Below are positions 4,854-59,980 of a DNA stretch of 64,000 bases, piece after piece. This DNA comes from Candidatus Staskawiczbacteria bacterium (GTDB taxonomy: Bacteria > Patescibacteriota > Minisyncoccia > Minisyncoccales > Staskawiczbacteraceae). Made by a program: the position numbers and the translations under genes. The notes below the pieces were generated by a model that ran no database searches, was not told where the DNA came from, and saw only the letters and a program-made list of their open reading frames with translations. Position 1 is the first letter of the stretch, and the number at the start of each line of letters is the position of its first letter. The stretch covers positions 25,498-89,497 of the forward strand of contig CAILLM010000008.1 of NCBI GenBank assembly GCA_903835075.1. The letters are read 5' to 3'.

Positions 4854-5243
4854 ATGAGAAGATTACTCTCTAACATTATCTCTGCCACATTGGGATTGTG
4901 GTTGGCACTATTATATGTGCCTAAGGTTGTTATAAGGGCATACCCATCATCTAATTTCTTTGGCGTACCGTTAACAGCTCAATGGGAAATTGTTTTAGTT
5001 TTAGGAATTACTTTGGGATTGCTAAATTATTTCTTAAGACCAGTTCTAAAAGCACTTACTCTACCCTTAGAAATTCTCACTCTTGGACTTTTTACAATAG
5101 TAATAAATATGGGTTTAGTCTGGATTTTGGACTCAATTTTTGATGAATTATATGTCCCAATTCTAATGCCCCTATTGTATACAACACTTATTGTTTGGGG
5201 ATTGAATATTATAATTAGTTTCTTCTTAGTTAAAAACAAATAA
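4854..5243 (+). CDS. Small 4-TM membrane protein, DUF360 / phage-holin-4_2-like family
   Basis: Four predicted hydrophobic helices of YvlD/DUF360 type. The track start at 4818 is a TTG; the first ATG (MRRLLSNII) is at 4854. Confidence 0.45.
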   Translation: MRRLLSNIISATLGLWLALLYVPKVVIRAYPSSNFFGVPLTAQWEIVLVLGITLGLLNYFLRPVLKALTLPLEILTLGLFTIVINMGLVWILDSIFDELYVPILMPLLYTTLIVWGLNIIISFFLVKNK

Positions 5244-5251
5244 TAAAAATT

Positions 5252-5470
5252 ATGAATCAAATTCTATTTTACTCACAAGTTATCACATCTGTAGTTTTAA
5301 TTGTGCTTATTGTAATCCAACAAAGAGGCGCTGCCTTGGGTTCTGGATTTGGAGGTGGTGGTGAAATTTATGCCACAAAACGCGGAGCACAGAAAAAAAT
5401 ATATTACGCTACGGTTGCAGTAGTAACCATTTTCCTAGTTTTGGGCGTATTAAATATATTAATACCGTAG
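5252..5470 (+). CDS. secG: Preprotein translocase subunit SecG
   Basis: 72 aa with two TM helices flanking the Gly-rich SecG loop QQRGAALGSGFGGGGEIYATKRG. Confidence 0.65.
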   Translation: MNQILFYSQVITSVVLIVLIVIQQRGAALGSGFGGGGEIYATKRGAQKKIYYATVAVVTIFLVLGVLNILIP

Positions 5471-5485
5471 GTTTTAAACCAAACA

Positions 5486-7489
5486 ATGGCAAAGTCAAAG
5501 TTTCCTAAACTTTCTCAATGGAAACAACTTTTTAAAATATTGAAAAAACCCGAAAAAATCTTTTTTTTGATTTTTCTGGTGTTGTTTATTGCATCTGCAA
5601 CTTACCTTGTAGTTAATTTTTATATAAATAATACAAAAGCGGTCCCTGCATTTGGCGGAACATATACAGAAGGCGTTGTTGGTCAGCCAAGATTCATAAA
5701 TCCTATTTATGGAGAAACAAATGATGTTGATAGAACTTTAATAGACCTCACCTATTCCGGATTAATGACTTATGATAAAGATGGAAAACTTATAAATGAC
5801 CTAGTAAAAAACTATCAAATTTCCGACAATGGGAAAACCTATACCTTCCAATTAAAAGACAAACTTTACTGGCAAGATGGCTCTCCCCTTACCGTTGATG
5901 ATGTTATCTACACAATAAAAACAATTCAAAATTCCGACTATAAAAGTCCTTTAAGAGCAAATTGGTTAAACGTAGATGCCAAAAAAATTTCTGACATATC
6001 ATTTGCGTTGTCCTTGGGGTCACCTTACAACTCTTTTCTAGAAAACTGTACAATAAAAATAATCCCTCAACATATTTGGAAAAATATTTTGCCTGAAAAC
6101 TTTGCTCTTTCACCGCACAACCTACAACCAGTTGGCTCGGGGCCATATACTCTTTCTGATATACGAGAAAATAAAGACAGCTTTATAACCAACCTAGCGC
6201 TTTCCGTAAATCATAAATATTATAGTAAGCTGCCATATATATCAGAAATTAATTTCAGGTTTTTTGGTAATAAAAATGATTTAATTAGCGCAGCCAACCA
6301 AAAAACAATTGATGGGTTCCCTGTTTCAGACTTAGAAAATAATGAAGCTTTGGCGGAAAAAGATGTCCACCAAGGGTGGAATACAAATGAAAAATTCCAA
6401 GTTTATTCTTTCTCACTGCCAAGATATTTTGCAGTATTCTTCAACTTACAGAATTCTAGAATTTTGTCTGATGGCAACATCACGCAAGCACTTAATTATT
6501 CTGTTAACAAGCAAGAACTTGCCCAAAATGTATATAATAAATTTAAAATAAAAACACCTGTTGTTAATTCCCCTATTTTGCCAGATTATTTTGGCTATTC
6601 ACAACCAAAAACAACTTACGACTACAATGTAGACTCTGCAAACAAACTTTTGGATAAATCTGGATACAAAGATTCAGGAGCTGGGCAAAGGACAAAAGCA
6701 AACAACAAAAAACCAGCATTTCAGTTTACTGGCTACTTGTCTACAAAATCTAAAGGTAATGAAGTTATAGAGCTTCAAGGATGTCTTTCTAGGCTAGACA
6801 GCAGCTTTAAAACTCTTTTGCAAACAGACCCAAGTGGGAAATATGGCGCAGGGACAGAAGCGGCTGTAACGGCATTTCAAAAAAAATATTTGCCAGGAGT
6901 CCCAACCACAGGAGAAACAGGAACTGGCACAAGAAAAGCTCTAAACACAGCTTGTTTTATAGCTCAAAGTAGCTCTTTGCCCCTACAATTCACATTAACC
7001 ACAATCAACCAACCACAAATGGTTTACACTGCCAATCTTTTAAAAAATTATTGGCAAAAAGTTGGGGTGATAGTTACAATAAAAACCGTAGAGCTTTCAG
7101 AATTAAAAAATGTTATTAAAAATCGTGACTACGATGCCCTACTTTATGGTGAGGCCTTTGGAAGTATCCCTGATTTATATCCATTTTGGCATTCCACACA
7201 AATAAATGACCCAGGGCTGAATCTTTCTGAATATCAGAACACAAACGCTGACCAATTATTAAAAGATGCCCGGGAAACGCTGGACAACAATGTGAAAGCT
7301 CAGAAATATGGAATTCTACAAGACACAATACTTTCGGGCTCTCCTGCACTCTTCTTATACAACCCCGACTATCTCTACTGGGCCTCACAAAAAGTGAAAG
7401 GAATTGATACAATTAAAATAGCTGACCCAGCTAAAAGATTTGAAAATATTCAAAATTGGTATATTAACACACATAGAACATGGAAATAA
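5486..7489 (+). CDS. ABC-transporter substrate-binding protein, family 5 (oligopeptide/nickel OppA/DppA-like), N-terminal membrane anchor, with an inserted putative peptidoglycan-binding segment
   Basis: SBP_bac_5-type N-terminal region (GGTYTEGVVGQPRFINPIY...LTYSGLMTYDKDGKL...YTFQLKDKLYWQDGSPLTVDDV). Internal GKYGAGTEAAVTAFQKKYLPGVPTTGETGTGTRKALN resembles PG_binding_1. Confidence 0.7.
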   Translation: MAKSKFPKLSQWKQLFKILKKPEKIFFLIFLVLFIASATYLVVNFYINNTKAVPAFGGTYTEGVVGQPRFINPIYGETNDVDRTLIDLTYSGLMTYDKDGKLINDLVKNYQISDNGKTYTFQLKDKLYWQDGSPLTVDDVIYTIKTIQNSDYKSPLRANWLNVDAKKISDISFALSLGSPYNSFLENCTIKIIPQHIWKNILPENFALSPHNLQPVGSGPYTLSDIRENKDSFITNLALSVNHKYYSKLPYISEINFRFFGNKNDLISAANQKTIDGFPVSDLENNEALAEKDVHQGWNTNEKFQVYSFSLPRYFAVFFNLQNSRILSDGNITQALNYSVNKQELAQNVYNKFKIKTPVVNSPILPDYFGYSQPKTTYDYNVDSANKLLDKSGYKDSGAGQRTKANNKKPAFQFTGYLSTKSKGNEVIELQGCLSRLDSSFKTLLQTDPSGKYGAGTEAAVTAFQKKYLPGVPTTGETGTGTRKALNTACFIAQSSSLPLQFTLTTINQPQMVYTANLLKNYWQKVGVIVTIKTVELSELKNVIKNRDYDALLYGEAFGSIPDLYPFWHSTQINDPGLNLSEYQNTNADQLLKDARETLDNNVKAQKYGILQDTILSGSPALFLYNPDYLYWASQKVKGIDTIKIADPAKRFENIQNWYINTHRTWK

Positions 7490-8488: not shown

Positions 8489-8570
8489 GTCGCGGTGGCG
8501 GAACTGGAATACGCGTGCGTCTCAGAAGCGCATCCCGTAAGGGTTGAGGGTTCGACTCCCTCCCGCGGCA
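8489..8570 (+). tRNA. tRNA-Leu (anticodon CAG), class II with long variable arm
   Basis: 7-bp acceptor GTCGCGG/CCGCGGC with one G-U pair. Anticodon stem TGCGT/GCGCA, loop CTCAGAA (U33, CAG, A37). Variable stem-loop CCCGTAAGGG. T-arm GAGGGTTCGACTCCCTC. Discriminator A. No encoded CCA. Confidence 0.75.
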
Positions 8571-8636
8571 CAAAAGTTAGAGGGTTTCCGCCAAAGGCGG
8601 ACCAGCCTCGGGCTGACAAGTCCCTCCCGCGGCACA
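8557..8636 (+). repeat. 16-bp direct repeat of the tRNA-Leu 3' end (TCCCTCCCGCGGCACA at 8557-8572 and 8621-8636) flanking a 48-bp spacer with a CCGCCAAAGGCGG hairpin
   Basis: Exact 16-nt duplication read directly from the sequence. The second copy is not part of a foldable tRNA. Confidence 0.7.
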
Positions 8637-8826
8637 CTTCGCTATAGCTCAGCGTAAACAAATAAAATCTCAATAAAATTAAATTAAAAAAATTAAACAA
8701 TTAAAAATGATTACACAAAGACACCCAGCCAGACCTGGCGGGTACAATAGAAAACCTTTGTCCCCCGCTGGGGCCAAAGAAGGACCACGGGCATATCCCG
8801 CTTGGCCAGAAAATAACCCCGCACCC

Positions 8827-10533
8827 ATGCCTACCGGCAGGCAGGCAATAAAAGTTTGGCGCGGAGATAATTCACTAAAAATAATTCCTCTTGGAGGATG
8901 CGAAGAAGTTGGAAGAAACATGACCTGTTTTGAATATGGACAAGATATTGTTCTGTTAGATATGGGCCTACAATTTCCAGAAGAAGATATGCCAGGAATT
9001 GATTATGTAATTCCAAATGTAGAATATTTAAAAGGAAAAGAAAAAAATATTCGTGGAGTTATATTTTCACACGGGCACTTAGACCACATTGGAGCAGCCG
9101 CAATTTTATTGCCAAAATTGGGCAACCCCCAAATAATTGGCAGGCCACTAACCCTTGAGATGGTAAAGCACCGCGTTGAAGATTTGCAAAGAGGCGCTTC
9201 AAAAAAATTGAAAACTCTTTACATAGAAAATTTGCAACAAAAAATAAATTTGGGATCTTTTACGCTTTCATTTTTCCAAATTGAGCACGCCATTATGGAC
9301 GCTGTTGGAGTAATTTTGGAAACACCAGATGGAACAATAATCCACCCTGGCGACTGGACAATTGAAAAAAATCCACAAGGCAGACCAGAAATTGATTATG
9401 GGCATTTAGCTAACATAAAAAGACCAACAATTTTAATGTTGGAATCTTTGGGGGCCACAAATTCCAAAGAACCTGTTACTGAAGAGGAAATGTTGAATAA
9501 CCTTTATAATTTAATCAACAAAGCACCTGGCAGAATTATTATCGCTACATTTTCTTCACAAATTCAAAGAATAAGACAAATTTTAGAGCACGCGGCAAAA
9601 ACCAACAAAAAAGTTGCGCTAGATGGTTTTTCAATGAAGTTAAACATAGAGCTTGCAACAAAACTTGGCTACATTAAAATTCCTAAAGGAGTAATAATTC
9701 CAATAGATAAAATTCATACAGTACCAGACAACAAAGTTGTTGTAATTTGCACAGGAGGACAAGGTGAAGAAATGGCAGCACTTTCAAGAATTGTTGCCGG
9801 CAACCACAGATTTATTAAAATCAAGAAAGAAGACACCGTTGTCTTTTCCTCATCGGTTATCCCAGGAAACGAGCGCACGGTTCAAAGAGTAAAAGACAAC
9901 CTTTACAGACAAAGCGACAATGTTTACCATTCAGATATTATTGATGTTCACATTTCAGGACACAGCAACATAGATGGAATAAAGCACATGCTAAGAGAAA
10001 TTAAGCCAGATTATTTTATCCCTGTTTATGCTAACCACTACTTCTTAAAAGAAGCTTCAAAAATTGCTCAAGGAATGGGCTTTAGAAAAGACAGAATTTT
10101 TGTGCCAGACAATGGTTCAATTATAAAATTCACCCAAAATAGTGCAGAAATTTTGAAAGAAAAGGTTCCTGTAAATTATGTTTTTGTTGACGGTTTGGGA
10201 GTTGGCGATGTTGGAGAAATTGTTTTACGTGACAGACAAATGTTGGCAGAAGATGGAATGTTTGTTATTGTTACTGTAATAGACAAAAGAACCGGGCAAG
10301 TGCGTGGCAGCCCAGATATTATTTCCCGCGGATTTATTTATTTGCGAGAATCTAAAGATTTGCTTGCTCAAACACGTAAAAAAGTTATTGAAATTGTAGA
10401 TAAATCTGCTGGTCACGGAGGAGCTATAAACTGGACCTATGTTAAAGATGAAATAAGAAACAAAGTTGGCGACTTCTTAGCGACCAAAACCTCCCGCAGA
10501 CCAATGATTTTACCAGTTGTTATTGAAGTTTAA
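8827..10533 (+). CDS. rnj: Ribonuclease J (metallo-beta-lactamase / beta-CASP RNase)
   Basis: LKIIPLGGCEEVGRNMTCFEY, HGHLDHIG and full RNase J architecture. The track start at 8707 adds a GC-rich 40-aa extension with no homology; the in-frame ATG at 8827 (MPTGRQAIKVWRGDNSLKIIPLGG) is the more plausible start, still upstream of the conserved N-terminus. Confidence 0.8.
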   Translation: MPTGRQAIKVWRGDNSLKIIPLGGCEEVGRNMTCFEYGQDIVLLDMGLQFPEEDMPGIDYVIPNVEYLKGKEKNIRGVIFSHGHLDHIGAAAILLPKLGNPQIIGRPLTLEMVKHRVEDLQRGASKKLKTLYIENLQQKINLGSFTLSFFQIEHAIMDAVGVILETPDGTIIHPGDWTIEKNPQGRPEIDYGHLANIKRPTILMLESLGATNSKEPVTEEEMLNNLYNLINKAPGRIIIATFSSQIQRIRQILEHAAKTNKKVALDGFSMKLNIELATKLGYIKIPKGVIIPIDKIHTVPDNKVVVICTGGQGEEMAALSRIVAGNHRFIKIKKEDTVVFSSSVIPGNERTVQRVKDNLYRQSDNVYHSDIIDVHISGHSNIDGIKHMLREIKPDYFIPVYANHYFLKEASKIAQGMGFRKDRIFVPDNGSIIKFTQNSAEILKEKVPVNYVFVDGLGVGDVGEIVLRDRQMLAEDGMFVIVTVIDKRTGQVRGSPDIISRGFIYLRESKDLLAQTRKKVIEIVDKSAGHGGAINWTYVKDEIRNKVGDFLATKTSRRPMILPVVIEV

Positions 10534-10562
10534 TTTAAATTAAAAATTTAAAATTAAAAATT

Positions 10563-11540
10563 ATGCGCATTTTTAGCGGCATCCGCCCTACTGGCGGGCT
10601 ACATATAGGAAATTATTTAGGAGCTATAAAGCAATGGATTGCTTTGCAAGAAACCAATGAATGCATTTTTTGCATTGTTGATTTGCATGCAATCACAACG
10701 CCTTACGACCCCAAAGAACTTCAAAAAAACATACTAGAAGCTACTGCAATTTATTTAGCAGCCGGCATAGATCCCGAAAAATCTATTATTTTTGTGCAAT
10801 CTGAAGTTAAAGAGCATTCTGAGTTAGCTTGGCTTCTAGAAACTATAACCCCAATGGGTGAACTTTCCCGTATGACACAATTTAAAGAAAAGTCTAAACA
10901 ATATAAGGACTATGTAAACGCAGGATTATTTAACTACCCTGTTTTAATGGCTGGTGACATTCTTTTATACCGCGCAAAAGCCGTACCTGTTGGAAAGGAC
11001 CAAGAACAACATGTAGAATTATCTCGCACAATTGCCAGAAAGTTTAATCAGAAATTTGGACAAATTTTTCCAGAACCAGAAACTATTTTACCAAAAACAG
11101 GAGCCAAAATAATGAGCTTAACTGACCCCAAAAAGAAAATGTCTAAGTCAGATGACCCAAAATCATGCATTTCTCTTTTTGACACGCCAGAAGATATTAC
11201 AAAGAAAATAATGTCTGCTGAAACTGATTCTGGCAAAGATGTAATTTACAACGTCACCAAAAAACCTGGCATCTCTAACCTTTTAACTATTTATCATTTA
11301 TTAACCGACACACCAATTCCTGAAATTGAAAAACAATTCAAAGGAAAAGGATACGGCGACTTTAAAAAAGCCTTAGCAAAAGTTGTAGTTGATTATTTGG
11401 AGCCATTCCGAAGAAAACAAAAAGAATTACAAACCCGCGACGTTTATGTAAAAGACATTTTAGAAAAAGGCGCCGAAAGAGCCCGAACAATTGCCGAAAC
11501 CACTATGAAAGAAGTTCATGAAAAAATGGGTCTTTCATAA
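10563..11540 (+). CDS. trpS: Tryptophanyl-tRNA synthetase
   Basis: Class I HIGH-type N-terminus (GIRPTGGLHIGNYLGA), KMSKS (KKMSKSD), ~325 aa. Confidence 0.85.
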   Translation: MRIFSGIRPTGGLHIGNYLGAIKQWIALQETNECIFCIVDLHAITTPYDPKELQKNILEATAIYLAAGIDPEKSIIFVQSEVKEHSELAWLLETITPMGELSRMTQFKEKSKQYKDYVNAGLFNYPVLMAGDILLYRAKAVPVGKDQEQHVELSRTIARKFNQKFGQIFPEPETILPKTGAKIMSLTDPKKKMSKSDDPKSCISLFDTPEDITKKIMSAETDSGKDVIYNVTKKPGISNLLTIYHLLTDTPIPEIEKQFKGKGYGDFKKALAKVVVDYLEPFRRKQKELQTRDVYVKDILEKGAERARTIAETTMKEVHEKMGLS

Positions 11541-11557
11541 ATTAAAACATTAAAAAA

Positions 11558-11596
11558 CAGCCGGGGTACCCATTTGGGTCCCGGCTGTTTTTATTT
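11558..11596. terminator. Bidirectional rho-independent terminator between trpS and the phosphohexomutase gene
   Basis: CAGCCGGGGtacccatttgggTCCCGGCTG hairpin flanked by A-run and T-run. Confidence 0.7.
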
Positions 11597-12924
11597 TATT
11601 TTTTAATCAATTTAGTTAGTTCTTTTATTTTTTGATCTAAAAGTTTTTGCGTGTCAGCCTCAATTGTTAGACGCAACAAGGGCTCAGTATTGGACGGTCG
11701 GGCATTAAACCACCAATCTTCATATCTAACGGTTATGCCGTCTATAAAATCTTGCGACACATCTGAATATTTTTTCTTAATTTTTTCCAAAATAGCTGTT
11801 TTATCGTTAACCGTAAAATTTATTTCGGGCGTTTTGAAATACTTATAAAAAGGTTTCACTATTTCTGAAAGTGGCTGATTGTAAGCAGACAATAATTGAA
11901 GTAAAATTACAAAAGCGATAAATCCGGAATCAGAATAGCCATTGTCGCGAAAACAATAATGCGAAGACAGTTCTCCACCCATGATACTCCCATGCTCACG
12001 CATTAAAGTAGAAATAAATATATATCCAACCCTAGAAGCAATCGCCTCTCCGCCCCATTTTTTGACCATTTCAGGCACTATTTTTGAACACACAACATTG
12101 TAAACAATGCTAGCACCAGGTTCTCTTTCTATAAATAATTTTGCGAGCAAGAGCAATGTTATGTCCGCAGGTATTACAACTCCCCTTTCATCTATAAAAA
12201 TTAGCCTATCAGTGTCTCCATCAAAAATAACACCAAAATCAGCCTTTTCTTTTACGATGGTTTCACAGATTTCTTTTTGTGACTCTGGCAACAACGGGTT
12301 AGAAGGATGAGCAGGAAAATGACCGTCCAATTTAAAATTCAAAGACACTATATTTAACGGCAATCCTTCTGTTAAAATAGGGATTATCTTACCCGCCATG
12401 CCATTACCCGCATCTACCACAACCTTAAATGGTTTTATTTTATCAACGTTGATGAAACTTAAAATATGACTTATAAAGCCCGGCATGATATTCTCTTCTC
12501 TGACCTCACCCTTAACATCGCTAATTTTTTCTGATAAATTTGTTACCTCTTCCAGCATTCCTGATACCACTACCCATTTCATATTTTTTAAAACCATTTT
12601 AAAACCGTTGTAATCAGAAGGATTATGTGAAGCAGTCACCATAATTCCCGCTTCATCTCCCAATTTATTCACGCAAAAATAAACAGCATCAATTGGCACC
12701 AATCCAATATCTTTTACATTTACGCCTTCATCGGTAATGCCATTAATTAGTGCACTTTTAAGCACTGAGCCGGAAAGCCTCATGTCCGAACCCACTGTTA
12801 TTTTTTTAGCCTTAGAATGTTTGGCAAAAGCACGCCCAATCAAATAGGCCGAATTTTCATCAAGCTCAGATGGATATATGCCACGGATATCGTAAGACTT
12901 AAATATGTTATAATTAATTTCCAT
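11596..12924 (-). CDS. Phosphoglucomutase/phosphomannomutase (alpha-D-phosphohexomutase family)
   Basis: Active-site loop TASHNP, SYDIRGIYP N-terminus, four-domain length (442 aa). Confidence 0.8.
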   Translation of the reverse strand: MEINYNIFKSYDIRGIYPSELDENSAYLIGRAFAKHSKAKKITVGSDMRLSGSVLKSALINGITDEGVNVKDIGLVPIDAVYFCVNKLGDEAGIMVTASHNPSDYNGFKMVLKNMKWVVVSGMLEEVTNLSEKISDVKGEVREENIMPGFISHILSFINVDKIKPFKVVVDAGNGMAGKIIPILTEGLPLNIVSLNFKLDGHFPAHPSNPLLPESQKEICETIVKEKADFGVIFDGDTDRLIFIDERGVVIPADITLLLLAKLFIEREPGASIVYNVVCSKIVPEMVKKWGGEAIASRVGYIFISTLMREHGSIMGGELSSHYCFRDNGYSDSGFIAFVILLQLLSAYNQPLSEIVKPFYKYFKTPEINFTVNDKTAILEKIKKKYSDVSQDFIDGITVRYEDWWFNARPSNTEPLLRLTIEADTQKLLDQKIKELTKLIKK

Positions 12925-12979
12925 TTTATTTATTCATATATTATACATAAATAATAATCTAAAATCCAGCAAACAGGGG

Positions 12980-13018
12980 TTGATTTTATAGACATCTTCT
13001 GTTATAATGCGGTATAAT
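12980..13018 (+). promoter_or_regulatory. Putative sigma70 promoter of the rpsF-ssb-rpsR operon (TTGATT-N18-TATAAT, second TATAAT 9 nt downstream)
   Basis: TTGATTttatagacatcttctgtTATAATgcggTATAAT read directly. Confidence 0.5.
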
Positions 13019-13102
13019 AAATTAAATGGAATGTGATCTTCCATGCGTCTGCGTGCAGACGTCTTGAAGCTAAAACTTCAGGATTTCATGTTCTACAAAC
13101 AA
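13019..13102 (+). promoter_or_regulatory. Structured 5' leader of rpsF (two hairpins: CGTCTG..CAGACG and CTGAAG..CTTCAG); candidate S6:S18 autoregulatory leader
   Basis: Two inverted repeats sit between the promoter and the ATG at 13103. A conserved rpsF leader bound by the S6:S18 complex is known in many bacteria. Confidence 0.3.
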
Positions 13103-13618
13103 ATGAAAACATACGAATTAGCGTATATAATTTCTCCGGAAATAACATCCGAAGAAGCCACAGCCAAGGCACAAGAAATAGAATCTGCTATACAAAGCAG
13201 AGAAGGAACAATTGTAAAACAACAAAATCCTGTTGCTAGAACTCTTTCCTATCAAATAGAAAAAAGAGCTTCAGGATATTTTGGAGTTATAGAATTTCAA
13301 TTAGAGCCTGAAAAATTATTAGAAGTAAAAGACATTGTTGCCAAAGATAAAAAAATTGTGAGACATATGCTTGTGATAAAAGAAGCTGCTGAGTTTAAAA
13401 AAGCAAGAAGAACTCGCGAAACTCCAAAAGTAAAAGTAGAAGCCGAAGAACTTTCTGTTTTTTCAACAACGCCTCTTACGGACGAGACAAAAGTAGAAGT
13501 TGAAACTCCAAAAGTAGAAGAAGAGGAAGCAGAAGACTCACCTACCAAAAAAGAAGCTAAAGAAAAAGTTGAATTAAAAGATATTGAACACGAATTAGAC
13601 GAAATATTAGGAGAATAA
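13103..13618 (+). CDS. rpsF: 30S ribosomal protein S6 with acidic/lysine-rich C-terminal extension
   Basis: MKTYELAYIISPE...S6 fold consensus. The track start at 13043 adds 20 aa across the leader hairpin; the ATG at 13103 matches the canonical S6 N-terminus. Confidence 0.85.
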   Translation: MKTYELAYIISPEITSEEATAKAQEIESAIQSREGTIVKQQNPVARTLSYQIEKRASGYFGVIEFQLEPEKLLEVKDIVAKDKKIVRHMLVIKEAAEFKKARRTRETPKVKVEAEELSVFSTTPLTDETKVEVETPKVEEEEAEDSPTKKEAKEKVELKDIEHELDEILGE

Positions 13619-15236: not shown

Positions 15237-15371
15237 GCGAGGTAGTGAATTCGTAGCGTACCCTGCAGGCAATTTTGCAAGGTTCGCCGAAGGCGAAAAA
15301 TTGCCGAAGCCTGAGTGAGTTGCACGCTGGCGCAACGAACGCTAGCGAAGAATTTACTGTCGAGCGATAAA
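15237..15371. repeat. GC-rich ~135-bp intergenic element with imperfect terminal inverted repeats (AGTGAATTCGTAGCG ... CGCTAGCGAAGAATTTACT), related to the dispersed GC-rich repeat family
   Basis: Abrupt GC rise. Ends are reverse-complement-similar. TGAATTCGTAG is also present at 57784 and a related form at 57255. The GCGAAGG/CGAAG cores resemble the elements at 16420-16480 and 59991-60028. Confidence 0.4.
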
Positions 15372-52372: not shown

Positions 52373-52464
52373 TAGCTTAATTATAAACGGTATGCAATAC
52401 TGGTGTCAATAATGTTTTCATGAATTGACTTCAAGCTATTTTAGGGTTAGAATAAAAGTCAATT

Positions 52465-53564: not shown

Positions 53565-54239
53565 TTAATTCTTTTTGTCAAGCCTACCCCCAGGTTTTTT
53601 TTCATCTTGTTTTCGATCTAAGATGCCCACCTCCTTGGAAGGTTCCATAATAGGAGCAGGCGGTTCAAATAGTTTTGTTTTTTGAAATCTTGCGATAAAA
53701 TCCTGCTGTTCTCTATTTGCCTTAGTTGCGGCCTCCATTTCTAATTTTTGTTTCTCCACTCCAGCTATCCAAGCATCTGAGGATTTCTTTTCAAGAACTT
53801 TTATTTCCCGTTGATTGTCAATGCCAGTAACATAATCTAAAAACCCAACAAAACCAGTAGTATGCTTCTTGCCAGAAAACAAAGATCCTAATCTAGTAAA
53901 TATATTATTCTTAAGAGGGTTGCTCAACTTCTTTATCTCCGCTTCAAGTTCTTCATAACTCCGCCCATCTGAATCTTGTGATTCTTGATGCATACTCTCG
54001 GTAACCTCACGAGGCGCAGTAGAGGGCTCAGTAATTCCTGCTTTTAACGATGCTATTTGTTGCTCTACTTCAGCATCTTGTGTTTCTTTATCAGGTGCTT
54101 TTCGCTTTCCAAATCTTACGTCCTTCACTGCACGACCTTCAGCCTGCGCAGCTAACCCCATTAAAGCCTCTGACACCTCTTTTTGCTCTGGAGTTTCTGC
54201 TGCTTCTTCAGGGGTAACTAATTTTTCTGTTTTTACCAT
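53565..54239 (-). CDS. Acidic hypothetical protein (coiled-coil-like), GC-elevated
   Basis: 224 aa, Glu/Gln/Ala-rich. Shares a duplicated promoter module with the 54502 gene. Confidence 0.35.
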   Translation of the reverse strand: MVKTEKLVTPEEAAETPEQKEVSEALMGLAAQAEGRAVKDVRFGKRKAPDKETQDAEVEQQIASLKAGITEPSTAPREVTESMHQESQDSDGRSYEELEAEIKKLSNPLKNNIFTRLGSLFSGKKHTTGFVGFLDYVTGIDNQREIKVLEKKSSDAWIAGVEKQKLEMEAATKANREQQDFIARFQKTKLFEPPAPIMEPSKEVGILDRKQDEKKPGGRLDKKN

Positions 54240-54501: not shown

Positions 54502-54792
54502 TTAATTATTTTTTTCTACTGGGTTCCTTCCATTCAATTCGTCTATATACTTTTTTTGCTCGGCCGTTAATTCTGCAATACGATTTTCCGCTTCACGCAC
54601 GCTCGCCTCTGCTAGTGCTATGTCTTCTGCCGTTGAAGAATTCTTTGCACTAACAACCCTTAAATAGCTTTTTAAATCTTCTACATCAATCCCCTGTATT
54701 TCATAAAAAAACTCGTTGGCTTTTTCAGCTAATTCTCTTTCGCTTAGAGTAGTTAAGTCTTCTATGATAGGCTCTCCTGATTCTTGTAACAT
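54502..54792 (-). CDS. Small acidic hypothetical protein
   Basis: 96 aa. Same promoter module as 53565..54239. Confidence 0.35.
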   Translation of the reverse strand: MLQESGEPIIEDLTTLSERELAEKANEFFYEIQGIDVEDLKSYLRVVSAKNSSTAEDIALAEASVREAENRIAELTAEQKKYIDELNGRNPVEKNN

Positions 54793-54893: not shown

Positions 54894-57158
54894 ATGATTA
54901 CATTGGCGACCAAGATAGAGGAAATTCCTAAAGTTGGCGTAGCTTACGCAAAAAAGTTAAAGAAGTTTGGCATAAAAACTGTGCAGGATTTGCTTTTTTA
55001 TTTTCCTGCGCGATACGACGACTTTTCAGAAATAATTTCAATTAAAGAAGCCAAGCAAAGATTGGGTGAAACTGTTTGCGTGCAAGGGCAAATTATCCAA
55101 ATGGAGAGCTCTAACTCTTTTAGAAAATTTATGAGTTTAACGCAAGTCATTATTCAGGATGACACTGGAGAAATTGGCATTATTTGGTACAATCAGCCTT
55201 ATTTAGCAAAGTCTTTAAAAGAAGATGATTTTATTTGCGTGGCAGGGAAAATAAGCTTAGGCAAAGAAGGCATTTATTTTGCTTCACCAACTTATGAACG
55301 CATAAATTATATTGGCGAAAACGAAGAACTAACTCACACAGGCCGAATTGTACCGGTTTATGCCGAAACCCGCGGCGTTACTTCCCGCTGGTTGCGATAT
55401 GTTATAAAACCATTGCTTTACAGGTTTTGTGAACAAATACAAGAATCTTTACCAAAAGAAATAATTAAAAAATACAAATTTTTGCCAATTCAGGAAGCTG
55501 TTTGGCAACTGCATTTTCCAGAATCTTTTGAACATGCCGATGCTGCCAAAGCAAGATTTTCTTTTGAAGAACTTTTTTTAATCCAGCTGAATGTTTTAAA
55601 AGAAAAAATTAAATTAATGGTAAAAAAAGCACATGCTTGCCCAATGGACAATGATTTGCTTAAAAAATTTACCGATTCTTTACCGTTTCAACTAACAGAT
55701 TCTCAAAAAAAATGCGCCTATGCAATTTTAAAGGATTTAGAAAAAACTGTTCCAATGTCGCGGTTGCTTGAAGGCGATGTTGGAAGTGGCAAAACAGTTG
55801 TAGCGGCAATGGCCGCGCTAAACGTAGTCAAAAGCGGGCATGCCGCCTCCGCCAAAGGCTACGGCGAGCCAAGGCAAGTAGCTTTTATGGCTCCAACGGA
55901 AATTTTGGCAAAACAACATTTTAAGTCGATTTCTGAAATGGTAAAACCGTTTGGGGTTACAACCGGCATGTTAACTGGGAAAGATGCTAGAATTTGCAGA
56001 AGCGGAGAAGTCTTTGAGGTTTCCAAAAAAAGTTTACTGGGTGATTTGGAGAATGGCCAGATTGATATTATTATCGGAACTCACTCACTGATACAAAAAG
56101 GAGTAGAATTTTCCCGCCAGGGGCGGGATCCCGCTGGGGCGGGAAAAGATTTGGCTTTAGTAATTTTAGACGAGCAACATCGGTTTGGCGTGGAACAGCG
56201 TGACCACTTAATAAAAAATAAAAAGATTGTCCCCCATTTGCTTTCAATGACCGCCACCCCAATTCCAAGAACTTTGGCTTTAACTGCTTATGGTGATTTA
56301 GATTTATCTTTGATTGATGAAATGCCTGCCAACAGAAAAAAAGTTAAAACAATTATTGTTGAACCACAACAGAGAAAACAAGCTTATGAGTTTATAAAAA
56401 AAGAAGTTTCCGAAGGCAAGGGCGTTTTTGTTATTTTTCCTAAAATAGAAAGCGCTGCTTCAAAACTTGCTGAAACAATTAAAGAAAAAGGCCCAATTAC
56501 AGGGTCAGCAGGATTTGCTGTACAAAATTACCCTACTGCCCCACTTTCTTTGTCATCTTTGGCCATAAACGAAGTTAAATCCTTAAAGGAAGAATACGAA
56601 AGATTGTCAAAAGAAGTTTTCCCGGATTTACGAATTACAATGCTTCACGGAAAAATGAAAGCCCCCGAAAAGGAACGCATTATGTTAGATTTTAAAAAAG
56701 GTGAGATTGATATTTTGCTTTCCACTTCAGTTGTTGAAGTTGGAGTTGATGTTCCCCGCGCCACTATAATGATGATTGAGGGAGCCGAACGTTTTGGGCT
56801 TTCACAACTTCACCAATTCCGCGGACGCGTTGGCCGAAGTGACATGCAATCTTATTGCTTTTTGTTCACCACAGACCCAAGTATGTTAAACAGAAAACGG
56901 TTAAAAGCATTGGTGGAGTCTAACAATGGTTTTGAATTAGCAGAAAAAGATTTGGAAATTAGGGGCCCGGGCAGTTTATATGGCACACAGCAATGGGGAA
57001 TTCCCGACATGGCAATGCAAGGTTTAAATAATATATTTTTGGTTGAAAAAACGCGAGCAGCTGCAAAAGAAATTTTAGAAAAAGATCCAAAACTAGAAAA
57101 GTACCCCGAGCTAAAAGAGCGCCTAAAAGAATTCCAAAAAAGAATTCACTTTGAATAA
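54894..57158 (+). CDS. recG: ATP-dependent DNA helicase RecG
   Basis: N-terminal wedge domain, helicase motifs (GDVGSGKT, DEQHRFG, C-terminal RecG motifs). Contains an in-frame GC-rich nested palindrome at 56109-56147 encoding FSRQGRDPAGAGKD. Confidence 0.9.
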   Translation: MITLATKIEEIPKVGVAYAKKLKKFGIKTVQDLLFYFPARYDDFSEIISIKEAKQRLGETVCVQGQIIQMESSNSFRKFMSLTQVIIQDDTGEIGIIWYNQPYLAKSLKEDDFICVAGKISLGKEGIYFASPTYERINYIGENEELTHTGRIVPVYAETRGVTSRWLRYVIKPLLYRFCEQIQESLPKEIIKKYKFLPIQEAVWQLHFPESFEHADAAKARFSFEELFLIQLNVLKEKIKLMVKKAHACPMDNDLLKKFTDSLPFQLTDSQKKCAYAILKDLEKTVPMSRLLEGDVGSGKTVVAAMAALNVVKSGHAASAKGYGEPRQVAFMAPTEILAKQHFKSISEMVKPFGVTTGMLTGKDARICRSGEVFEVSKKSLLGDLENGQIDIIIGTHSLIQKGVEFSRQGRDPAGAGKDLALVILDEQHRFGVEQRDHLIKNKKIVPHLLSMTATPIPRTLALTAYGDLDLSLIDEMPANRKKVKTIIVEPQQRKQAYEFIKKEVSEGKGVFVIFPKIESAASKLAETIKEKGPITGSAGFAVQNYPTAPLSLSSLAINEVKSLKEEYERLSKEVFPDLRITMLHGKMKAPEKERIMLDFKKGEIDILLSTSVVEVGVDVPRATIMMIEGAERFGLSQLHQFRGRVGRSDMQSYCFLFTTDPSMLNRKRLKALVESNNGFELAEKDLEIRGPGSLYGTQQWGIPDMAMQGLNNIFLVEKTRAAAKEILEKDPKLEKYPELKERLKEFQKRIHFE

Positions 57159-57215
57159 TTTATAGACTACGCTTACACTGACTTTTCTCCAAACGTTACG
57201 CGTTTTGTAAGGAAC

Positions 57216-57246
57216 AAAAAAACCGCCGAAGGGCGGTTTTTTTAAT
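57216..57246. terminator. Bidirectional terminator (AAAAAAACCGCCgaagGGCGGTTTTTTT) after recG; also closes the minus-strand GC-rich island transcript
   Basis: Perfect 6-bp GC stem with A/T runs on both sides. Confidence 0.8.
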
Positions 57247-57411
57247 TTCAACTATGAATTCGCCAGTGTAGAACTGATGCGCTCAAGTGTTGGGAGAACT
57301 TATCGCGTTCTCCATGTTTTGTGGCAAGCCACACGTCGGATTGGTTACCGAAGGTATTCGAGAATATGGTCTCAATACCTATGTCGCCTTTACAAAAGAC
57401 GAAAAACGAAT

Positions 57412-57663
57412 TCAGTTATTCAGTGGCAACCCAGCCATTGGACCGCTCAAGATCTGGGCGACGACAGTGCCGTCATCCAGCCTGACGGCCAGATTGTTCC
57501 AATCATACGGCGGCGCGGACGGCATGCTGCCATCCGCCCGGGGATACGGCGTGTGGGAGCTAACCCACATGGCACCTTCGGGCTGGGAGGTGGGGTTGCA
57601 GAGCCATGTGTTCATGCCATCGGTGATAAGGTTCGGACCAATTCGTTTCATTGTGGTTTTCAT
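57412..57663 (-). CDS. Small ORF (83 aa) with ~75% GC at third codon positions inside a GC-rich island; coding status uncertain (the region could instead be a structured RNA)
   Basis: ATG at 57663 ... TGA at 57412. It sits between a consensus promoter (57879-57907) and the terminator at 57216-57246. Two other frames on the opposite strand are also open, which GC-rich DNA can produce by chance. Confidence 0.3.
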   Translation of the reverse strand: MKTTMKRIGPNLITDGMNTWLCNPTSQPEGAMWVSSHTPYPRADGSMPSAPPYDWNNLAVRLDDGTVVAQILSGPMAGLPLNN

Positions 57664-57878
57664 GATATCAGTATTTTTTTGATTGTTGTTGGAAAGCTGT
57701 TTTAACTTCTTCGATTGTAAAATCTGTTATTGCCTTTCGGCGAATCGAAGTAGTCAATCAAAGCCTACAGGATGGCTCCCTGAATTCGTAGTGAACGCAG
57801 GTTGCTGTGCCTTTTAGAGAAAAGGCACATAAATCTGCGCTCACTTGCTATGTTTTCAATGTACTCTACTATGTCTCT

Positions 57879-57907
57879 ATTATACCACCATTCAGCCACC
57901 TTGTCAA
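57879..57907 (-). promoter_or_regulatory. Perfect-consensus sigma70 promoter on the minus strand (TTGACA-N17-TATAAT) driving transcription into the GC-rich island
   Basis: The minus strand reads TTGACAaggtggctgaatggtggTATAAT; the predicted TSS near 57872 gives a ~210-nt leader before the ATG at 57663. Confidence 0.6.
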
Positions 57908-57991
57908 GGGGTAGAGGACTTTCTACTTCCCTGGCCCAAAACAACAAAAAACCGACCGCTTGGCCAGTTTTTCTATCTTATTATCTTTATT

Positions 57992-58228
57992 TTAATATTC
58001 TAATTTAATTCCGAGTTTTTCAGCAATTTGTAAAAGCCACTTCTCGTGCCGATCAACTTTATGAGAAAGCATTACCAACTCATCAAAAAATTTGTCAGCT
58101 TTTGTTGAGTAAGCATCAACTGAATTCTGAAGTAAATTAAAATTATCCTTTAATTCCTTAAAATCGCTGGCTATTTTGCCAAACTTTTCGTCAAGATATT
58201 CTACTAATTCTGATAAATCTTCTTTCAT
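57992..58228 (-). CDS. Small helical hypothetical protein (78 aa), probably translated from a leaderless or near-leaderless mRNA
   Basis: ATG at 58228 (MKEDLSELVEYLDEKF...); the track start at 58249 is a TTG that overlaps the -10 box. Confidence 0.4.
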   Translation of the reverse strand: MKEDLSELVEYLDEKFGKIASDFKELKDNFNLLQNSVDAYSTKADKFFDELVMLSHKVDRHEKWLLQIAEKLGIKLEY

Positions 58229-58234
58229 ATTTTT

Positions 58235-58262
58235 ATTATACTCTAGCAAAAGTGACTGTCAA
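58235..58262 (-). promoter_or_regulatory. Consensus sigma70 promoter (TTGACA-N16-TATAAT) whose -10 ends 6 nt before the ATG at 58228
   Basis: The minus strand reads TTGACAgtcacttttgctagagTATAATaaaaatATG. Confidence 0.55.
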
Positions 58263-58345
58263 ATTTTTATTTCCTAATTTTTTCTGTAACCACAAAAACG
58301 TCGCTTCGCTCCTTCAAAACCCACGGTTTTGAATAATTTCCTACA

Positions 58346-58370
58346 CGGGAGGATTTACTAAATCCTCCCG
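58346..58370 (-). terminator. Hairpin CGGGAGGATTTactAAATCCTCCCG downstream of the GT2 gene
   Basis: 11-bp perfect stem. Confidence 0.5.
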
Positions 58371-58390
58371 ACCCCTCCTAAGATTTTGGG

Positions 58391-59980
58391 TCACTTTCGA
58401 ATCTTCTCAGTGACCCAAAATCCCATGTATTTGCCTAGCATCAAACGAATTTGGGCGTCCAAGGCGGGCAGCGAACCAAAGACAATTAATGTAACTGGTA
58501 AAAATATCCATTGCAAAAATACTGAAGCGCGCTTTCCAATTCTTTTATACCATTTTATGGTTTTTGGAATTGGTGGCAAAAGCATTGTGCTTAAAATTGC
58601 TGAAACCATCATGCCTGCCAAAGAAACAGTCATAATTTGCCCAGTTAAAATGGGCAAATTAAAAGACAAAATTGTAAAATTAAATTGATGCCCACCCAAA
58701 AGAATTGGCAACCAGCCGAGCATAAAAAGCAAAAGTGAAGCTGTTGCCCAAGACCAAAATCCATCTAAAATTGTGTAAATGTGACCAATTTTTTCGCGCA
58801 AAGGAATTTTTTTGTTTTGAATAAATCCAAACATTATATACGGAATTTCGGCACAACCCCAAGCCCAACGTTTTTGTTGTTTGTATTGATTGATTGCTGT
58901 TCTCCAAACACTTTTTGCCATAACAGCATCCATGGAAGCCAAATAATACATTGGCACAACTCTGTACTTTGCATCATAATTTAAATATGCACGCCAGAAA
59001 ATTCGCGAGTCATCGGAAACAACATTTGCAGGATACCCCACTTCAAAAAATACTTTTGCGGGAGTGGAATGCGAAGAGTATGTTGTAAGTTTTTCTGAGC
59101 GCTCTTGCTGAATCATTTGCCAAAAAGTATTTGAAGTTGAAACAACTCTGGCAAAAGCAGAAGCTGTCCAAATGTTGTTGTTGTAAACAGGAATTGGCTG
59201 ATAGCTGGCACTCTCTGGGTTTTCTTCTGTTAAATATAAATAAGTCAGCCGTGCAAAATATTGCGGAAAAACTTTTGTATCTATGTCAAAAGTAGAAATT
59301 AAAATATTTTCGTAAGGAATTCTTAATTCATCAATTATTTTTTCTTTTACTTGCTTACCTGCATATGCGGTATTTGAACCCTTACCTGCGATTTCACCCT
59401 CTATATTGTCTGGGTGCACAACAACCATAAATTTATAAAATTCGTGAGAATGTTTATTGGCAATAATTCTGGCTTGTTTTTCAAAGTTTTCACCAGCCCT
59501 GGCCTCAACCGCCAAAACAATAATCATTTTTTCTTTGGGATAATCACACTTGATTAAGGTTTCCAAACTTTCTTCTATCAAATCTTCTTCTTCTTGGTAT
59601 GTTGGTAAAATAATTACATGATAAATATTTTTCCAGCTTGCCCTGAGCGACCTGCCCTGAGTGAAGTCGAAGGGAGTCGAAGGGTTTTTCAATTCTTTCA
59701 ATTCTTTTAGCCAATCAACCTTCATATTTTTTTTAACTCTAAAATATCCTACAACTTGGTGCAAAGAAAAATAAAAAACTCTAAAAAGATAGTAAAAACA
59801 AAAACAAATAATAAAAATAGCAATTTGTGCTGGAAACAACCACGACAAAATAAGCACGCCAAAAAGCGTGCTTAAACTCATAACACCGGGAATAATCTCA
59901 AAAAATCTGTAAAGTCTTCTGTCTTTCGGATTTTTTAAGTCCGAAGCTTTTGAGATGTCTAAATAATCTTTTTTCTCCAT
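58391..59980 (-). CDS. Processive family-2 glycosyltransferase (cellulose/chitin-synthase-like integral membrane GT2)
   Basis: N-terminal TM helices, GT-A catalytic region with D..D, and the Q-x-x-R-W motif (QQKRWAWG) followed by C-terminal TM helices. Contains the in-frame GC-rich insertion FDFTQGRSLRAS at 59641-59690. Confidence 0.65.
   Translation of the reverse strand: MEKKDYLDISKASDLKNPKDRRLYRFFEIIPGVMSLSTLFGVLILSWLFPAQIAIFIICFCFYYLFRVFYFSLHQVVGYFRVKKNMKVDWLKELKELKNPSTPFDFTQGRSLRASWKNIYHVIILPTYQEEEDLIEESLETLIKCDYPKEKMIIVLAVEARAGENFEKQARIIANKHSHEFYKFMVVVHPDNIEGEIAGKGSNTAYAGKQVKEKIIDELRIPYENILISTFDIDTKVFPQYFARLTYLYLTEENPESASYQPIPVYNNNIWTASAFARVVSTSNTFWQMIQQERSEKLTTYSSHSTPAKVFFEVGYPANVVSDDSRIFWRAYLNYDAKYRVVPMYYLASMDAVMAKSVWRTAINQYKQQKRWAWGCAEIPYIMFGFIQNKKIPLREKIGHIYTILDGFWSWATASLLLFMLGWLPILLGGHQFNFTILSFNLPILTGQIMTVSLAGMMVSAILSTMLLPPIPKTIKWYKRIGKRASVFLQWIFLPVTLIVFGSLPALDAQIRLMLGKYMGFWVTEKIRK

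Follow-up and report, generated by a model that had tools for sequence, protein, structure and literature searches.

What occupies the GC-rich interval just downstream of recG in the 64-kb stretch of DNA analyzed here (contig CAILLM010000008.1; the window, below), from an organism related to Candidatus Staskawiczbacteria (Parcubacteria/Patescibacteria)? The initial annotation, made from the sequence alone, offered two answers: a gene recently acquired from a high-GC donor and placed under a strong native promoter, or a highly expressed structured RNA. The interval (the island; coordinates of this and other features are in Table 1) extends to the 78-aa coiled-coil gene p85, a name given in this analysis, and contains an 83-codon open reading frame (ORF) on the minus strand. 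Rather than a large non-coding RNA, it is probably an independent expression cassette that was acquired horizontally and encodes a small protein.

The composition of the island is unusual, if less uniformly so than first described. GC content is 47.8% over 57250-57960, compared to 35.6% for the whole window; the rise to about 55% claimed for that stretch is found for the ORF alone (57.9%, the highest GC in the window and about 4.6 standard deviations over its mean), the leader upstream of it having 39% and the region 3′ to it 44%. Nor are all long frames open on both strands, as had been stated: the open stretches are 164, 134, and 75 codons on the plus strand and 104, 55, and 54 on the minus strand.

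The ORF itself is present as annotated, and a check of codon periodicity found the three-base GC pattern of a coding sequence (0.51/0.52/0.70 by codon position); its third-position G/C content (GC3) is thus high, but 0.70 rather than the approximately 0.75 reported. An exhaustive phmmer (HMMER) search of 1.84 billion representative proteins gave two matches covering the whole ORF: P0003 (103 aa, 42% identity, E 3.6e-6) and P0004 (93 aa, 44% identity, E 2.2e-5). In tblastn searches of the loci encoding these relatives the E-values were 3e-11 and 2e-8, although the nucleotide sequences differ. An alignment of the three proteins has 24 invariant positions, including the run ..GP.L.T.G..TW..N.T..P.G......H.PYP..DG, and the window ORF keeps all of them. 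The sense frame is the only one free of stops in all three genes. Together with the protein-level relatives, this identifies the minus-strand ORF as a real gene; the frames left open on the antisense strand are what a GC3-rich gene usually brings with it.

The family to which it belongs is very small. A third phmmer match, the 2038-aa adhesin-like protein P0002, had a lower E-value (1.4e-17), but this is a sum over 10 weak repeat matches involving residues 10-46 only, and was not relied on; Pfam labels these repeats MBG_2/AgI_II_C2, and an hhalign comparison with a single MBG (YGX-type) repeat gave a probability of 20%. A word-indexed protein search of the ORF returned a single product, an identical one of 79 aa encoded on a 779-bp ENA contig. 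A profile search from the family found no further members, scans of metagenome contigs and viral contigs found no further relatives, and no tblastn match in collections of phages and plasmids had an E-value under 0.4. None of the three members matched a Pfam, NCBIfam, PHROG, or PADLOC profile (best PHROG E 0.068), the best E-value in a PDB profile search was 1.3, and no cold-shock-domain profile match was found in the protein. AlphaFold2 predicts six beta strands (best pLDDT about 80), with a C-terminal helix in the longer relatives; in the P0004 model, this helix is at 84-91, and two of five AlphaFold2 models agree. Three structure searches with two AlphaFold2 models gave no significant fold match. 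No signal peptide or hydrophobic segment was seen in the sequences, read by eye. The product is therefore predicted to be a small, cytoplasmic, all-beta protein, and its family is both undescribed and very rare.

The genes for the two relatives have quite different neighbors. That for P0004 is on contig L045 (Logan SRR26192781), between polA and a holA-like gene; that for P0003 is on contigs L046-L048 and a 362-kb contig (JGI metagenomes 3300050046/-113/-078/-173), between ndk and a DUF2238 gene. The island, between recG and p85, makes a third context. All three genes nonetheless sit in the same kind of unit. The L046 promoter is TTGACA-N16-TGnTATACT and that of L045 TTGACA-N18-TGnTATAAT, close in type to the window promoter; leaders follow, of 176 nt in L046 and 161 nt in L045 (from inferred starts), with no Shine-Dalgarno (SD) site in either; and terminators come directly after the stop codon in both. 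When the three loci were compared, no homology was found upstream of the −35 or past the terminators, which makes the conserved unit promoter to terminator. Since promoter and leader recur with the gene in two unrelated contexts, both are part of what is transferred, and the proposed placement of an incoming gene under a strong native promoter has to be given up.

Taking the features that mark the family, the window ORF has full-length similarity with the shared motifs TW..N.T..P.G and H.PYP..DG, and its cassette is a stand-alone promoter-leader-terminator unit; the ORF departs from its relatives in ending at a TGA about 10 residues early, without full length and the C-terminal helix. The relatives, 42-44% identical to it over their full length and sharing its predicted six-strand all-beta topology, are 10-20 residues longer.

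In the window, the promoter claimed by the initial annotation is indeed an exact minus-strand sigma-70 consensus, and it has in addition a TG-extended −10. Three perfect sites of the TTGACA-N17-TATAAT class were observed in 64 kb, where 0.08 would be expected. The other two (TTGACA-N16-18-TATAAT, at 52380-52409 and 58235-58262, both minus strand) end 6-8 nt before the ATGs of ORFs (52372 and 58228), which suggests that perfect promoters are native to this genome and normally drive leaderless mRNAs. For p85, the listed TTG start (58249) is probably wrong, and the ATG at 58228 the likely one. The cassette promoter probably fires; transcription was placed as starting near 57872, from the promoter position, and the ORF ATG lies 215 nt past the −10. 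The bidirectional recG terminator described as closing the minus-strand unit was found, with a perfect stem. On the other side, the terminator of p85 would shield the cassette from read-through.

An SD motif precedes only 3 of 51 genes in the window, and many ATGs are 6-10 nt past a TATAAT; the contigs of the relatives are SD-less as well. This fits the reported absence of the anti-SD motif in a subgroup of Parcubacteria (PMC9297842), so that the lack of an SD site before the ORF is normal here.

Table 1. Features of the island and its surroundings (positions are those of the window; RNA features of the leader are predicted).
Feature	Position	Strand	Description
Bidirectional intrinsic terminator	57216..57246	both	Serves recG (+) and the cassette (-); perfect 12-bp stem (57216-57243), A/T-run flanks
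Island	57159..57991	none	From recG stop (57158) to stop of p85 (57992)
3′ untranslated region	57247..57411	-	165 nt; three predicted hairpins, z=-3.65
In-frame continuation past TGA	57379..57411	-	IRFSSFVKAT, then TAG; read from the sequence
83-codon gene with TGA stop	57412..57663	-	Rare family of small, predicted all-beta proteins
A/C-rich linker to AUG	57664..57701	-	Predicted mostly unpaired; no SD site
Domain P2	57702..57757	-	Outer stem UUGACUACUUCGAUU / AAUCGAAGAAGUUAA around invariant hairpin GCCGAAAGGCA
Invariant GAAA-tetraloop hairpin GCCGAAAGGCA	57741..57731	-	3-bp GCC/GGC stem, GAAA loop
Hairpin P1	57790..57845	-	Helices of 11 bp and 10 bp on either side of a 5x5 internal loop (21 bp together), closed by a CUCU loop
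Leader 5′ single-stranded part	57846..57872	-	Carries GUACAUUGAAAACAU box
Sigma-70 promoter	57907..57879	-	TTGACA-N17-TGgTATAAT; exact consensus, TG-extended -10
Terminator of upstream gene p85	57973..57946	-	12-pair stem, then T run
p85	57992-58228	-	78-aa coiled-coil gene
GT529	58391-59980	-	529-aa family-2 glycosyltransferase

The leader is the second conserved part of the cassette. In the window it is 209 nt long, counted from the inferred start, and has no SD site. The two stable hairpins noted in it initially are both there, with P1 pair probabilities of about 1, and are far more stable than in shuffled sequences: the z-score of the leader fold is −4.9 (−5.6 for 57700-57875), and those of the two homologous leaders −3.7 and −5.0. 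All three have the same order of parts: 27-41 unpaired nt, a 21-23-bp hairpin (P1), a second stem around GCCGAAAGGCA (P2), an A/C-rich stretch (..AAACAAY..), and the AUG. The hairpin is in the same place in each but wholly different in sequence, while the 11-mer GCCGAAAGGCA is identical in all three cassettes; by our own estimate, and not as the output of a tool, an 11-mer would be common to three 200-nt sequences by chance with a probability of about 4e-7. The GUACAUUGAAAACAU box in the 5′ single-stranded part resembles GCACAUUGA in L046 and GCACUUUAAAACAU in L045, a weak similarity. A leader of about 210 nt is abnormal among leaderless and short-leader mRNAs, which argues that it has been selected. 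From these comparisons, it is a genuine conserved structured RNA element, and one not previously described.

The leader probably acts after transcription. A helix of about two turns (21-23 bp) is the size recognized by RNase III, and the uninterrupted or nearly uninterrupted helix of P1 recalls those in the 5′ untranslated regions (UTRs) of RNase III-processed mRNAs such as E. coli rnc and pnp; by this analogy the leader may control mRNA stability or processing, although P1, unlike the hairpins of those leaders, sits 27-41 nt from the 5′ end. That it is an operator for the encoded protein, permitting self-regulation, would be a guess. The predicted folds give no support to a switch concealing the AUG: the start region is predicted to be 46-72% unpaired across the three mRNAs, and pairing of the 5′ box with the start codon was set aside, as base-pair probabilities show no pairing common to all three. 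A 10-bp pairing between the leader and the end of the ORF (ACGAAUUCAG/CUGAAUUCGU; about 0.2 expected by chance in 650 nt) was likewise set aside, the homologues having no counterpart.

How did the cassette come to lie beside recG? The gene order in the window is recG (54894-57158, plus strand), island, p85 (−), GT529 (−), tRNA-Glu (−), tsaD (+). The closest sister by RecG, at 88% identity, is MAG JBAZUH01; about 30 other Staskawiczbacteria-type metagenome-assembled genomes (MAGs) have RecG proteins 65-84% identical to that of the window. The sister-genome comparison proposed by the initial annotation found the island missing from every sister examined: blastn against 43 sister recG loci gave no match to any part of it. 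Synteny by tblastn indicates that the gap between recG and GT529 is variable, with 7-17 bp in nine sisters, 50-180 bp in others, and in the remainder 0.3-2.1 kb of unrelated genes (methyltransferase-like, P-loop kinase-like, Nudix, coiled-coil, and others). In contig L041, recG is followed by 12 nt, p85, 11 nt, and GT529, without the island. This variability, and the island-free arrangement in L041, mark the junction as a hot spot for cargo at which the cassette is one more insertion. The cassette on L045 provides a second, independent case of presence and absence: its polA-holA gap is 586 nt and holds the cassette, where three contigs with flanks 92-96% identical to it in nucleotide sequence have a spacer of 22 nt.

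The origin of the gene is suggested by its composition. Its GC3 of 0.70 compares with 0.27±0.04 (maximum 0.36) for 27 long host ORFs, a contrast that fits import from a GC-richer donor. The L045 gene also stands out, with a GC3 of 0.48 against 0.30 for its genome; that on L046 (0.61, against 0.53-0.72) is native-like in a genome of 52% GC. The proposal of a high-GC donor has thus held up, on the protein relatives, the sense-only open frame, the GC3 contrast, and the island-free sisters. The further suggestion that the donor was a host of this organism found nothing in its support, one relative (that from the 52%-GC genome) having a matching native composition.

Put together, these observations suggest the following sequence. 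A promoter-to-terminator cassette would have come from an organism with much higher GC3 and been inserted between recG and its neighbor, at the cargo hot spot of this lineage. Its extended −10 promoter would start an mRNA of about 650 nt, ending at the bidirectional terminator shared with recG. The first 210 nt or so would be a leader owned by the cassette, with a short free 5′ end, P1, P2 with its GCC-GAAA-GGC hairpin, and an A/C-rich stretch at the AUG. Translation would start without an SD site, as in nearly all genes of the organism, and yield the 83-aa all-beta protein.

Several observations weigh against this account. Only three distinct family members were found among about 15 billion proteins, so that all comparisons have n=3, and confidence in the structure models is only moderate (best pLDDT about 80, others 45-79). 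Sequence conservation in the leader is weak past the 11-mer, the internal loops of the window P2 are arranged unlike those of L045 and L046, and predicted AUG accessibility varies among members, with no common sequestering helix. As to the means of insertion, no recombinase ORF was found in the 833-bp insert, the target duplication that had been suggested as a check was not found, nor were terminal repeats. Direct repeats at the island borders are limited to a pair of 30-mers that resemble terminators and are 70% alike, and the L045 cassette, too, showed no duplication at its flanks. Finally, the window copy differs from its relatives in ways that suggest it may be slightly damaged or decaying. 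Its protein lacks their predicted C-terminal helix, and its 165-nt 3′ region has no counterpart in the homologous cassettes.

Taken further, these last points would make the cassette a dead or dying remnant, its C-terminus lost by nonsense mutation and no function left to it in this organism. The in-frame residues past the TGA (IRFSSFVKAT) are possibly what remains of the homologues' C-terminal helix (..QIRQIQN / ..QRRLIKGL). In favor of a remnant, too, the composition is not adjusted to the host, and only one genome of the clade has the cassette. Yet the promoter keeps 12 of 12 consensus positions as well as its TG extension, the ORF is otherwise intact, with every family-invariant residue in place, and P1 and P2 are perfect helices; the C-terminal tail is moreover the least conserved part of the family, and modeled with low confidence. 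A remnant is thus rather unlikely.

An alternative that keeps the unit functional but changes its purpose makes the leader a separate small RNA, or part of a dual-function transcript acting in trans, with the ORF riding along. The conserved architecture and strong structure of the leader would suit such a role, as would its exceptional length among leaderless and short-leader mRNAs. However, none of the three loci has a terminator in the stretch from P2 to the AUG, and the leader was never found without its ORF in the sequences examined. The 11-mer GCCGAAAGGCA occurs once in the window; its copies elsewhere, in L006 and L014, are in unrelated hairpins, and a scan of viral contigs for the leader motif GCCGAAAGGCANAAATCT gave five matches, none with the cassette ORF nearby, which were taken as chance. 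An independent RNA in the leader therefore seems improbable.

The larger version of an RNA reading, the second of the answers first proposed, is that the whole transcript of about 650 nt is a structured ncRNA in which the ORF is incidental. It draws on the GC-rich island in an AT-rich genome, with its strong promoter and terminator, and on a whole-transcript fold z-score of −6.8. This z-score, however, is inflated, since shuffling distributes the bases of the GC-rich core into the AT-rich parts on either side: by segment it is −5.6 for the leader, −3.65 for the 3′ region, and −2.0 for the ORF, which is no better than control coding regions (+1.2 to −3.2). A covariance-model check of the island, as the initial annotation had proposed, matched no Rfam family: the gathering-threshold scan of the whole window found four tRNAs only, and a permissive scan (E<=10) of 57100-58100 gave sub-threshold, terminator-like matches only. 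ARAGORN found no tmRNA, in agreement with the initial statement that no signature of tmRNA, RNase P RNA, or signal recognition particle (SRP) RNA was present. Like the loci of OLE, GOLLD, ROOL, HEARO, raiA, RNase P, tmRNA, SRP, and 6S RNA, the island is intergenic and rich in GC, has a promoter and a terminator to itself, and is predicted to fold strongly, but it differs in that its GC-rich part is a protein-coding ORF, without an Rfam match on either strand; among the Rfam families covered, OLE, GOLLD, ROOL, HEARO, raiA, riboswitches, and the cspA thermoregulator included, none reached its gathering threshold. With protein-level relatives at differing nucleotide sequences, and the sense frame alone open in three members, this reading is largely refuted and very improbable.

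One special case of an RNA locus was considered because TIGR arrays (tigRNA) have been described in Staskawiczbacteria (bioRxiv 10.64898/2026.09.09.750476). These consist of tandem units with a box C (RUGAUGA) and a box D, beside a tas (Nop-domain) gene. RUGAUGA does not occur in 57159-57991, no family of tandem repeats was found there, and the neighbors are recG, the 78-aa coiled-coil gene, and a glycosyltransferase; the island was rejected as a candidate.

The possibility that a foreign high-GC fragment was joined to a Staskawiczbacteria contig in assembly would account for the extreme composition of the island, and for its being unique to this genome, but is extremely unlikely: the independent 779-bp ENA contig, present in three samples, runs at 100% identity from the end of recG through terminator and ORF into the leader, the terminators and promoter framing the cassette are in the style of the host itself, and a homologous cassette is embedded likewise in another low-GC genome. 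That one of the long plus-strand ORFs (131-142 aa, 57277-57705) is the real gene can be dismissed almost entirely, since the two open plus-strand frames (134 and 164 codons, the former sharing its wobble position, and hence its periodicity, with the minus-strand ORF) are what is expected opposite a GC3-rich gene, the antisense frames open in the window carry 2-9 stops in the L046 homologue, a word-indexed search of the 134-aa frame found no homologue and Pfam no match, and no plus-strand promoter was found.

Returning to the protein-coding cassette, its design has known parallels, among them leaders autoregulated by a protein as well as those under RNase III control. In mRNAs of the cspA type, a strong promoter and a long structured 5′ UTR precede the gene for a small beta-barrel protein. 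The cassette may be compared to these in design only (strong promoter, 160-210-nt leader, all-beta protein of about 70-100 aa): the Rfam cspA model (RF01766), whose gathering score is 78, touches just the terminator and scores 10.7 bits there, and the protein has neither a cold-shock-domain match nor a fold match. As a genomic object, it is like a strain-variable islet in occupying a conserved convergent junction with differing cargo, and in its clean presence and absence in two lineages, but differs from these in that its cargo is one very small gene equipped with a promoter, leader, and terminator of its own, and in having no definable integrase, attachment-site duplication, or terminal repeats. 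The closest resemblance is to the P0003 and P0004 loci, which share its promoter type, its GCCGAAAGGCA leader architecture, and its stand-alone nature; the P0003 gene is unlike it in having a composition native to its genome. A bolder interpretation, and a doubtful one, would be that such units constitute both a new minimal, recombinase-free mobile cassette of SD-less Patescibacteria-like genomes, entering at gene junctions, and, in the long hairpin and GCC-GAAA-GGC domain of their leaders, a new class of cis-regulatory leader RNA, for example an operator bound by the encoded all-beta protein or a sensor of a ligand or of temperature.

Some other features of the region can be noted. The three GAATTCG motifs said to mark the segment are present (57256, 57407, and 57782), but the number in the window is at the level of chance (5 observed, 5.7 expected), so that there is no enrichment; the match of the stretch around one of them to position 15250 is an 11-nt chance match (E=10), and a self-comparison of the island with the rest of the window gave chance matches only (<=15 nt, this one included). 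GAATTC is neither avoided nor in excess in the window (24 observed, 22.65 expected). There is a local cluster of it, 7 of the 24 being within 56998-58127 (1.13 kb), where the 3′ end of recG and the island have three each and p85 has one (p about 1e-4, by a rough scan-corrected Poisson estimate).

Beside the GT529 stop is an element of about 130 nt (window 58263-58425; L022 8113-8290; L028 8205-8385), with about 85% conservation among three genomes, although in RecG these are only 65-81% identical to the window. It contains a decayed copy of the GT529 3′ end (VTEKIRK*) and one of the recG 3′ end (SFKTHGFE*), the exact 12-mer TTTGAATAATTT at 57150-57161 being repeated in it at 58328-58339. There is also a perfect palindrome (58346-58370), with a compensatory change in L022, and a 12-bp inverted repeat around the GT529 stop. 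The element looks like a duplicated convergent junction, the scar of an earlier insertion or excision; alternatively, it could be a structured 3′ UTR, having four pairs with double changes. In L021, a duplicated RecG C-terminal fragment (5153-5308) lies beside GT529. In the closest sister by RecG (L002, 88%), recG-GT529 synteny has been lost, and 8559-13337, downstream of recG, carries a gene for a repeat-rich protein of surface type (1592 aa) and an ORF of 76 aa.

Elsewhere in the window, the minus-strand genes at 53565-54239 and 54502-54792 are preceded by about 29 identical nt before their ATGs; this shared sequence, TTAAATAAAAATAATTAAATTTTAAAAAT, is a duplicated 5′ region or promoter. In L014, a relatively GC-rich stretch (5480-5960) upstream of recG, following two tRNA genes, has hairpins (e.g., CUGCCGAAAGGAGG..) and an ORF of about 100 codons, and is unrelated to the island.

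For the organism, the strongest GC outlier of the window would then be a protein gene of recent import, rather than a housekeeping RNA or giant ncRNA that had been overlooked. With three members in the family, the practical importance of this is limited for now. The locus does illustrate clearly how a reduced genome can gain a gene, by a cassette of about 0.6-0.8 kb carrying its own promoter, leader, and terminator and found in two lineages, and it draws attention to an undescribed small-protein family along with an undescribed conserved leader RNA. As the hosts otherwise use SD-free mRNAs that are leaderless or have very short leaders, a conserved leader of 200 nt is likely to be doing something.

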